A DNA stretch of 29,517 bases from Candidatus Wolframiiraptor sinensis (GTDB taxonomy: Archaea > Thermoproteota > Nitrososphaeria_A > Caldarchaeales > Wolframiiraptoraceae), in the NCBI GenBank assembly GCA_023261815.1, contig JALNKA010000014.1:1-29517 (forward strand). The letters run 5' to 3'. The notes under the pieces were generated by a model. That model did not search any database, was not told where the DNA came from, and saw only the letters and a program-made list of their open reading frames with translations. This document shows, one piece after another, positions 1 through 826 of this stretch. The position numbers and the translations under genes are program-made. The stretch's first letter is position 1, and each line of letters begins with the position of its first letter.

Positions 1-674
1 ACGCATACGTTTTGTCGAGGATTCATGGTATGCCAAAGGCCTTTGCGGAAGTCACGCCCCTCGACGTGGAGTTCAAGCCATTGCTGATGAGGGAGAGGAG
101 GGTGGTTAAGATCCTGAACGAGTTATACCAGTTGCAGGCGCTCGGCGTCTATATTGAGGACGAGGTTATTAAGGATCACAAGAAGTGGCTGACGGAGATA
201 CGTGAGGAAATTGTCGAGAAAGCGCAAGAGAGGATTCCTCGATTCACCGAGATCGCTGAGAAGCTAGGACTGGACAATGATGACGTCAATGCGCTGTCGG
301 CGCTGGCTGGGCTGCTAATCTACCTGAAGTGGCCGTTTAATGTGCCATCATATCATAAAGCTAGGAGGTTTCTAGGATTGTATAAGCCGACAAAAGATGA
401 TAAGAGAAAGTATGAGGAGAAGATGAGGGAGAAATTCGTGAGGCGTTATAACAGCTATGCTAGGAGATATTTAAACTCGCTGACGGCGGCAATGTTTGCC
501 AAGAAGAAAATTTTTCCGCCGAGGACGAGGGATGAGAAGGAGGTGCTGAGGGAGTTACTAGGAGTTCTGAGAACCTTCAACGGCGCCAATGAGGTGGAGG
601 AGCAGGATAAAAGCCCTGATGAGGCCCGTGGTCGCCCTAATTACTGCTCCACGAGGGAGTGGTTCCAAAATTAA
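1..674 (+). mobile_element. IS110-family (DEDD/Nop-domain) transposase-like gene, 5'-truncated by the window edge
   Basis: The frame is open back to the window start and reads (D)AYVLSRI, matching the end of the IS110 DEDD/RuvC 'D..DA..LA' motif. It continues into a helical linker and ALAGLLIYL...PSYHKARRFLGLY, resembling the Transposase_20 motif 'A.LLAEI...F.S...L.AYAGL'. Composition looks more AT-rich than the neighbours. Confidence 0.7.
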
Positions 675-711
675 TGGCGGGTGAAGGGCTGTCTAGATGC
701 TCCTCCCCCTC
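591..711 (+). ncRNA. Predicted structured RNA overlapping the 3' end of the IS110-like gene
   Basis: Nested stems: 591-604/698-711 (13 of 14 complementary), 612-616/686-690, 624-628/678-682 and 643-650/656-663. The G-U wobbles favour the + strand. The internal loop is UGAUGAG/GAA, and a T-run follows at 726-730. Confidence 0.55.
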
Positions 712-736
712 TCCCCGCATCCCTCTTTTTCCCTTA

Positions 737-754
737 TGAATTAATTGAATTAAT
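737..754. repeat. 9-bp tandem duplication (TGAATTAAT x2)
   Basis: TGAATTAAT at 737-745 and 746-754, just downstream of the IS110-like element. Confidence 0.7.
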
Positions 755-826
755 TTTGGGCTTGAAGAGCTCGCTGAAAGCTCAAGGCTAATATACCGAG
801 AAGACGATTATGAGGCGGCCGAGCTC

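Follow-up and report, generated by a model that had tools for sequence, protein, structure and literature searches.

Copy-specific guides match the insertion sites of a candidate RNA-guided element of the IS110/TasR/Nop5 group in a hot-spring archaeon

The start of a 29,517-nucleotide stretch of archaeal DNA (contig JALNKA010000014.1 of Candidatus Wolframiiraptor sinensis, assembly GCA_023261815.1; hereafter the window) was analyzed together with the 1.18-Mb, 33-contig genome in which it constitutes contig C18. On the best reading, the window begins inside a selfish element of a Caldarchaeales-type hot-spring archaeon. The element carries a gene for a RuvC/coiled-coil/Nop-like protein and a structured RNA with two short guides, and the guides of each copy very probably specify the site into which that copy is inserted, as judged from the sequences of filled and empty sites. 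A first-pass annotation, made from the letters of the window alone, had proposed an archaeal RNA-guided RuvC-Nop protein intermediate between IS110 recombinases and box C/D or TIGR-Tas systems. This interpretation is supported in part: the family would represent a new branch of the IS110/TasR/Nop5 group, apparently with the habits of an RNA-guided selfish element.

Guides and their insertion sites

The RNA recurs about 19 times in the genome, either attached to gene copies, alone, or beside gene remnants. One of its internal loops is conserved and the other is variable. The latter is large and pseudo-symmetric with each strand reading RRU-N7-UU(G/A)A-U. The N7 parts are wholly different between copies, such that mean identity is 38% for the guides compared to 74% for the scaffold, and scaffold and guide identities are uncorrelated (r = 0.05, 120 pairs). 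In the window, loop positions 665-675 are an exact 11-nt reverse complement of positions 749-759. The first-pass annotation had reported a direct match of the heptamer AATTAAT between the RNA and a downstream tandem repeat; the heptamer match does exist, but the significant relation is the 11-nt reverse complement. As had been envisaged for covarying stems with variable loops, reverse complements of at least 9 nt between the loop and the copy's own flank beyond the T-run were detected in 10 of 19 genomic copies compared to 3 of 342 cross-pairings. Same-orientation matches between loop and flank occurred in none of the 19 copies and none of the 342 cross-pairings, and the matching loop strand varied by copy, being sometimes the 5′ and sometimes the 3′ strand. 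Independent genome and metagenome loci behaved similarly: right-flank matches of at least 9 nt were present at 20 of 69 loci (144 of 4692 cross-pairings) and of at least 11 nt at 7 of 69 loci (7 of 4692), with all matches mapping to one of the two loop strands.

Empty sites disclosed the full target. The window site is empty in four related genomes, where it reads GCGAGCAACCT followed directly by AATTAATTTTGGG and where homology to the window starts at position 748. At the strain level, metagenome runs X10, X12 and X13 from three studies possess GATGCGAGCGCCCT directly before position 748, the empty site reading CGCCCT followed by AATTAATTTTGG, and the filled junction occurs in runs X2 and X10. 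The element's presence or absence is polymorphic at this level. The comparison of empty and filled sites, proposed with the first-pass annotation, therefore puts the junction of element and target between positions 747 and 748, within the tandem AATTAAT region that had been suspected to be an element end or target, and reveals that the DNA from 748 onward is native in the relatives and in the three runs. Guide 633-643 is the left part of the empty site in the same sense, guide 665-675 is the reverse complement of the right part, and the two overlap in ATTA.

Bipartite matches of the same type were observed for other copies. An ORF-less copy of 370 nt (C14b; ORF, open reading frame), whose site is empty in four relatives, has a left guide that matches in the same sense over 10 nt and a right guide that is the reverse complement over 11 nt. 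The empty sites of C9a in two relatives hold an uninterrupted 18-bp target that is matched perfectly by both guides (9+9; 18/18). The empty sites of C23 match at 18/18 positions in two relatives and at 17/18 in a third, and the empty site of C5b in one relative matches at 16/17. At the C4a site four relatives have the right half as native DNA, and the left side of the intergenic region differs among relatives. At metagenome loci L046, L091 and L093 both target halves surround the element. Overall, two ~9-nt guides apparently directed against opposite strands of a ~18-bp target were seen at five sites with empty-site controls. The target conforms to the rule N7, a 4-nt core that is mostly TTAA, and N7. 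One guide is complementary to the left half and core on the bottom strand, the other to the core and right half on the top strand, and a single G.T wobble allows the consensus UUGA to pair with TTAA of either strand. Either loop strand may take either side, with two sites arranged one way and three the other. The notion that both guides pair contiguously with one strand, which came from C23 with its palindromic TCTAGA, was ruled out by the empty sites. As the element sits at the center of its target, the recognition site is destroyed by its presence.

Searches for the second guide on the left side were less productive. Matches within 300 nt upstream of the gene were not enriched (3 of 56 compared to 235 of 3080 cross-pairs), and at variable left distance 8 matches in 50 loci compared to 0.087 per cross-pair amounted to a weak enrichment.

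The guide RNA and its protein partner

Nested stems had been predicted at the 3′ flank of the gene, and the segment 588-742 indeed folds with a minimum free energy of -59.3 kcal/mol (z = -2.94), with 3 of 200 shuffled sequences folding equally well. Sixteen genomic copies of the RNA align well and yielded a consensus structure in which stem P1, the conserved internal loop, stem P2, a kink-turn, stem P3, the large internal loop, hairpin P4, a C-rich tail and a T-run follow each other; the window copy folds alike (Table 1). No Rfam family was matched at the gathering score, the three matches being at chance level (E>3). A covariance model built from the 16 copies located the RNA directly 3′ of the gene and on the coding strand at 63 of 80 metagenome loci and 11 of 18 genome-contig loci, in agreement with the suggested pairing of gene and RNA. 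In 34 sequences aligned to this model, and with pair counts to be read in light of that fitting, both-side changes were evident in 24 of 29 pairs, and paired cells amounted to 92.1% compared to 40-53% when partners were slid, values that none of 500 shuffles attained. Frequent G.U pairs fit with transcription of the RNA from the + strand.

The first-pass annotation also had pointed to a box C/kink-turn. This motif is borne out by the consensus of the 16 aligned copies of this clade, but is absent from other clades. The consensus kink-turn consists of a 3-nt bulge, GAU, and then G.A and A.G pairs, adjoining the 6-bp stem P2, and the pair that follows covaries (GU in five, GC in five, AU in four and others in two of the 16 copies). 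Other clades have a continuous helix with a 3-nt bulge in this position. Thus, the kink-turn is a feature of this genus-level clade and not of the family. As the box C/D-like kink-turn adjoins the guide loop in the one clade, L7Ae possibly is involved there.

Box C-like GAUGA and UGA that make up a kink-turn, two L7Ae-family genes and a separately encoded canonical Nop5 (C9:58521-59195) in the genome, and the location of the complement on the strand of the RNA within 0-110 nt would suit a cis pseudoknot between the loop and the downstream transcript, or an unusual box C/D-type guide for RNA modification. On the pseudoknot view, the covariation between loop and flank would be due to RNA structure instead of DNA targeting. 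Both possibilities are considered highly improbable. They are contradicted by the complementary sequence being native DNA that is present in element-free genomes and strains. Furthermore, the match of the other guide is on the opposite flank and of opposite sense, and this flank lies upstream of the RNA by about 220 to over 2000 nt, depending on the element; the T-run separates the RNA from the site, and other clades dispense with the kink-turn. The protein retains its nuclease active site in a genome that has its own canonical Nop5. No finding connects the system with RNA modification, its guides matching DNA insertion sites.

The family of the window protein, whose full length is ~300 amino acids, eludes sequence profiles. 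Neither the window fragment nor an intact paralogue matched a Pfam family, including PF01548, PF02371 and PF01798 at threshold, and the sole match in NCBIfam was to IS110 NF033542 (E 0.3, 10 bits compared to a cut-off of 140). Searches of PDB sequences with the fragment, the paralogue and a family profile returned nothing but a keratin coiled-coil match, which was discarded. Comparison by hhalign of the family profile with one canonical IS110 sequence from a related genome produced no alignment, a single-sequence target being uninformative. A word-indexed search retrieved 69 relatives, of which all named ones are hypothetical proteins from metagenome-assembled genomes (MAGs) of Nitrososphaerota, Thaumarchaeota or Bathyarchaeia and none has a Pfam domain; matches on genome contigs were in Candidatus Geocrenenecus and other MAGs of Nitrososphaeria. 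When 1.84 billion cluster representatives were searched exhaustively with the profile, 132 proteins were retrieved at E<=0.001. None of 27 more distant, mostly full-length relatives reaches a Pfam cut-off, and one has PF01548 at E 0.0098. The family is small and without annotation and so probably was missed by profile-based surveys.

Residues D9, D46, K95, D97, D100 and A101 are invariant in 38 full-length sequences. In a wider 21-sequence alignment the invariance holds for K95 and D100, with conservation of 90% or more at D9, D46 and D97. The RuvC domain contains the motif K-T/S-D-x-G-D-A, which we take to be the IS110 signature. The absence of the catalytic-serine loop that had been surmised for the window protein extends to the family and superfamily: downstream of YLGL(Y)K there is a helix-forming insertion (KPTKDDKRKYEEK in the window) or a deletion, no conserved serine column follows YLGL in the 38 close or 21 distant sequences, and the next serine, in ..RYSG.., varies between S, N, Q and C across the family. 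A conserved serine, which would have spoken against the first-pass proposal if aligned to the IS110 catalytic position, was found in this region in neither alignment. An AlphaFold2 model from the 38-sequence alignment (predicted local distance difference test score 91.3; predicted template modeling score 0.85) has an N-domain of the beta-alpha type, a pair of long helices and a C-domain made up of helices only, and this confident model has no beta-hairpin in the post-YLGL region. Foldseek comparison with the PDB produced 13 matches at E<=0.001, with E 0.03 for the next among the matches listed, and the ten top-listed were all chains of TIGR-TasR (9mty), IS621 (8wt6 and 8wt9) and ISCro4 (9t56). 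The VIA-align Z score was 16.4 for TasR over 253 residues, 14.8 for IS621 over 266 residues and 14.8 for ISCro4, with alignments to IS621/ISCro4 of 260-266 residues and a fold match spanning residues 2-295. Scores were 12.3 for TasH, confined to the C-domain/Nop domain, 8.4 for RuvC, and 7.3 for the C-domain of Nop56/58 in pre-ribosome structures. The strong structural matches, to TasR, IS621, ISCro4 and TasH only, are those expected of the DEDD/RuvC and Nop-like protein that had been recognized at the outset. On these grounds the predicted protein is of the RuvC/coiled-coil/Nop kind typified by IS110 and TasR, without the serine-recombinase module, and its RuvC nuclease site is apparently intact.

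The window ORF includes RRFLGLYKPTKDDKRKYEEKMREK in the loop region and runs off the 5′ end of the window. Window positions 1-127 recur without change as the final 127 nt of contig C14, and the N-terminal part of the gene, whose recovery from adjacent sequence had been called for in the first-pass annotation, is located on C14. It is in a different frame to the window ORF, and the window copy therefore has a frameshift or base-calling error. The last ~22 codons of the ORF (about 609-674) run through the RNA gene; in most paralogues the frame ends at a TAA corresponding to 608-610. Further gene copies or fragments were detected by tblastn on C12, C13, C14, C33, C5, C25, C2, C10, C17 and C28. 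The only intact within-contig gene is C12:669-1583 (304 amino acids), and several other copies are cut by contig ends. Canonical IS110 is rare in this setting, NF033542 being present in 1 of 76 class genomes sampled and in 0 of 14 genus genomes.

Metagenome contigs from runs X2 and X10 skip positions 423-593 or 469-602 and represent deletion derivatives of natural origin, with the 3′ part of the gene lost and the RNA kept. A very G+C-rich stretch, stop-free in several frames, lies directly upstream of the intact gene (C12:1-668; L004:1-668) and has no Rfam match at gathering score. A small ORF of ~81 codons (MGEVVEGVRLINLTPHEITIY) is situated upstream of the gene at L005:954-1199 (C14), and also on C17, C4 and, in part, C13. 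It accompanies about 330 nt of conserved sequence upstream of some gene copies and has no Pfam match. Homologue P0024 bears an N-terminal extension that resembles it.

Table 1. Coordinates of the element, its RNA and a second repeat family. Positions without a contig label refer to the window.
Feature	Position	Strand	Details
RuvC/coiled-coil/Nop-like protein gene, 3′ two-thirds	3..674	+	cut by contig start
Guide RNA gene (scaffold)	593..735	+	~140 nt, C-rich tail, T-run 726-730
RNA stem P1	596-604/698-706	+	fold
RNA stem P2	612-617/685-690	+	fold, 6 bp
RNA kink-turn	618-623 with 682-684	+	GAUGAG opposite UGA
RNA stem P3	624-629/677-682	+	fold
Loop 5′ strand (L5)	630..645	+	guide 633-643, same sense as empty-site left half plus core
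RNA hairpin P4	646-650/656-660	+	fold, hairpin 646-660
Loop 3′ strand (L3)	661..676	+	guide 665-675, reverse complement of 749-759
Copy-specific spacer, RNA tail to element right end	736..747	+	element ends at 747; holds first tandem-repeat unit
Native DNA, core plus right half of bipartite target	748..759	+	element-free in four related genomes and three metagenome runs
Second repeat family	C9:60726-60986 (L141:1727-1987), C4:51-284, C28:41256-41402, C16:51-195		
Second repeat family, further copies	C33:50573-50707, C5:19839-19926, C23:17377-17480, C4:36761-36845		

Homing, insertion and alternative readings

RNA-guided homing or insertion by a selfish element is the best reading of the system as a whole, and is given about an even chance. 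A protein dimer loaded with the RNA would recognize the uninterrupted site, as TasR does with two 9-nt spacers, and the RuvC sites would cut within or near the core. The element would then enter the broken site by copying of the occupied allele, that is, by homing, and first colonization of a site would proceed by repair-mediated capture. ORF-less copies that consist of the RNA only would employ protein from other copies.

The ends of the element bear on its chemistry. The right end lies 0-110 nt past the RNA with intervening sequence that is unrelated between copies, and the left end, in loci where it was located, lies upstream of the gene by 109 to 1289 nt. The ends are not conserved and no terminal inverted repeats were seen. 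In four of four elements the RNA has no complementarity to the joined element ends, and the possibility that the same loop or a second loop recognizes the joined ends was rejected as neither gave a match in these four. Core nucleotides are repeated at both junctions: all four in C9a, L093 and L091, three of four in C14b and L046, and two in C23 and the window, with TTAA at both junctions of C9a and L093 and TATA at both of L091. The duplicated segment measures 2 bp in the window and C23, 3 bp in C14b, 4 bp in C9a and 5-6 bp in L093 and L091, and its position also varies. The genomic copies are old, with a scaffold identity of 74% on average and 90% at most, and thus show no sign of a recent burst.

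These features can be weighed between two types of chemistry. Nuclease action plus repair, instead of direct strand transfer, is suggested with middling confidence by the missing serine, the lack of a donor-recognition loop or conserved ends, the variation in end positions and junction duplications, and old lineages that each are tied to one site. The alternative is an RNA-guided transposase or recombinase in which the ribonucleoprotein inserts the element into N7-core-N7 by RuvC/DEDD hydrolysis and strand transfer, with staggered attack duplicating the core. Strand transfer would resemble that of DDE transposases and integrases with an RNase-H fold and so would not require a serine intermediate. 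The IS110-type K(T/S)DxxDA motif and the sub-threshold IS110 matches (NF033542 and, in one relative, PF01548) fit this possibility, as do two guides that address opposite strands and overlap at the core in the manner of IS110 target-binding loops, 19 genomic copies with a separate site for each that corresponds to the guides of that copy, and identity of 4 nt at both junctions in three of six elements and of 3 nt in two more. Nevertheless, the RNA lacks a second variable loop for donor binding, the distance between RNA and right end varies, the duplicated segment fluctuates from 2 to 6 bp, and the age of the copies does not speak of recent transposition. A transposon with defined ends in particular is disfavored by loop strands that swap sides, the variable right end, and the absence of inverted repeats and of complementarity to joined ends. 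Transposition of this type is considered possible, but somewhat unlikely.

A host-serving or defensive role also was considered, in which the RNAs guide DNA binding in trans, for example to viruses, plasmids or promoters, as a dispersed equivalent of a TIGR array, with the flank matches arising incidentally. TasR has the closest fold, the genome is dotted with many RNA-only copies in the manner of guide genes, several targets are in AT-rich intergenic DNA just upstream of genes, and a preprint describes catalytically dead TasR proteins as repressing (bioRxiv 10.64898/2026.09.09.750476). However, the full target of each copy tested is the very site that this copy interrupts (five sites), and no intact composite target with up to two mismatches was found in the whole genome for any of 52 tested, three-mismatch matches being as common as in the control. 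The RuvC acidic residues are conserved and not inactivated, and the strain-level polymorphism is as for a selfish element. A role in service of the host is improbable.

Several observations count against homing or insertion by a nuclease-based selfish element. Among genomic copies 9 of 19 had no own-flank match of at least 9 nt, and among foreign loci 49 of 69 had none. The guides of the C12 copy, which has the only intact full-length gene in the assembly, match neither of its flanks, and the C12 site is occupied in relatives too, with a related tail there. The left junction of the window copy is on another contig within a hybrid element, and no single contig presents both of its junctions. 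Short duplications of the core are the expected trace of staggered strand transfer, and 8-nt 3′ overhangs as reported for TasR would not account for them. Moreover, homing would require DNA exchange between cells of the organism, and the reading leaves the acquisition of guides for a new site unexplained.

Rearrangements were noted around some copies. The left flank of the window site is on C4:36400-37260 (L136), joined to a gene-less hybrid element that comprises RNA C4a and a different right flank, and in relatives the flanks of the window site are adjacent to each other. This arrangement suggests recombination between two element copies, that is, a chromosomal rearrangement. At the C9a site (L141, C9:60322-61127) the left half-site of the native DNA, with about 25 nt of its flank, is inverted and located right after the RNA, which denotes that an inversion took place here besides the insertion; canonical Nop5 is encoded about 1.1 kb upstream of this site. 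A second repeat family of about 150-260 nt occurs near several element copies, often in opposite orientation (Table 1), and may be part of the left region of the element or a separate element. A sequence resembling a tRNA 5′ half beside the C17 copy at the contig end (L153, C17:29900-29999) was dismissed as ARAGORN called no tRNA. Beyond the element, the window has adjacent small hydrophobic ORFs at 827-1057 and 1064-1357 (76 and 97 amino acids) with the common motif GGLILIGPIPI; their start region is conserved in relatives, and they resemble paralogues of a small membrane protein arranged in tandem.

Comparison with known RNA-guided systems

IS110 bridge recombinases, TIGR-Tas and box C/D ribonucleoproteins are three RNA-guided systems on a common protein chassis. 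The Vaysset et al., 2024 survey reports no homologues outside IS110, Nop5 and Prp31 and no archaeal clade ancestral to Nop5 (PMC11213020), and a 2026 survey of bridge RNAs chose loci by Pfam IS110 architecture. This architecture is absent from the family described here. Literature on TIGR-Tas, IS110, Nop5 and bridge RNA disclosed no serine-less IS110-like family with a single own-site guide, most subscription journals and supplements being outside the search. It is tentatively proposed that the family is the first RNA-guided homing family on the IS110/TasR/Nop5 chassis, in which a serine-less RuvC-Nop enzyme would use a single two-guide RNA to break its own empty allele, and that it may represent the 'missing' archaeal RuvC-Nop lineage between IS110 and Nop5. 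Placing it between IS110 and C/D, as an intermediate, is guesswork about its evolution. If the proposal is true, tandem-guide targeting of the TasR type would acquire a testable biological role in selfish homing or insertion. Filled and empty sites directly disclose the targets of the guide pairs, namely the insertion sites of the element itself. The predicted enzyme would be compact (~300 amino acids), independent of a protospacer-adjacent motif and served by a single ~140-nt guide RNA with the simple rule N7-TTAA-like-N7. The natural series of scaffolds with and without the kink-turn would allow it to be asked how L7Ae-dependent ribonucleoproteins could have arisen.

TasR is the best structural match, with the same RuvC/coiled-coil/Nop fold and, as here, no serine nucleophile. 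TasR employs 9-nt spacers that address opposite strands of an 18-bp target with symmetric roles and that are encoded in tandem arrays (Faure et al., 2025, PMC12045711). A 2026 preprint describes stem-loop tigRNAs and states that the natural targets of TIGR-Tas, for the most part, and spacer acquisition are unknown (bioRxiv 10.64898/2026.09.09.750476). The RNA of the present family likewise has two short, interchangeable guides for opposite strands of the adjacent halves of a ~18-bp site, and its succession of stem, guide, hairpin, guide and stem parallels the stem-loop tigRNAs. The coiled-coil dimer of TasR is matched in fold alone, and a dimer is presumed here. In contrast to these likenesses, sequence identity to TasR is 11-13% with no sequence-level match found, and the RuvC motif is of the IS110 type. 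The guides occur as one unit per locus (63 of 80 loci) and are dispersed singly in the genome, as noted without a dedicated tandem-repeat scan, instead of in TIGR arrays. The scaffold is long, with two extra stems, the conserved internal loop and, in this clade, the kink-turn. The guides overlap at a 3-4-nt core whereas TasR spacers abut, and they aim at the insertion site of their own element, the unit behaving as a mobile element.

The IS1111 group places its RNA on the 3′ side of the gene. The present family shares with IS110 and IS1111 an RNA encoded inside the element and adjoining the gene, on the 3′ side as in IS1111, and with IS621 and ISCro4 a full-length fold and a DEDD-type RuvC domain with a KTDxxDA-like motif. 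Its internal-loop guides would pair with both target strands around a core at the insertion point, as those of IS110 do. It differs from IS110 in that the catalytic serine beta-hairpin after GLxP appears to be replaced by a helix or deleted, and in that neither PF01548 nor PF02371 is matched at threshold. Its RNA has one programmable loop, compared to two in the bridge RNA, and no donor-binding complementarity; guides and site are particular to each copy, whereas IS110 copies have one common target; and the ends of IS110 elements are conserved but those of the present elements are not.

Box C/D small ribonucleoproteins, composed of Nop5, fibrillarin and L7Ae, resemble the system in a Nop-type C-terminal domain, in a pseudo-symmetric two-guide RNA and, within this clade, in a consensus kink-turn with box C-like UGAUGA. 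The differences are that the RuvC acidic residues are intact here with no match to Pfam Nop (PF01798), that the guides match DNA insertion sites and not ribosomal or transfer RNA, and that the kink-turn is not family-wide in a system whose host genome encodes a separate Nop5.

Homing endonuclease genes and the TnpB and IscB nucleases of IS200/IS605 elements are functional analogues. The specificity of the present family would derive from two RNA guides internal to the element, instead of from protein contacts or from a guide transcribed from the flank, and the protein families are unrelated. However, as in these systems, a nuclease-type protein and its specificity determinant are carried inside the element, and, as with homing elements, the recognition site spans the insertion point, is disrupted by insertion and is subject to presence/absence polymorphism at the same position.

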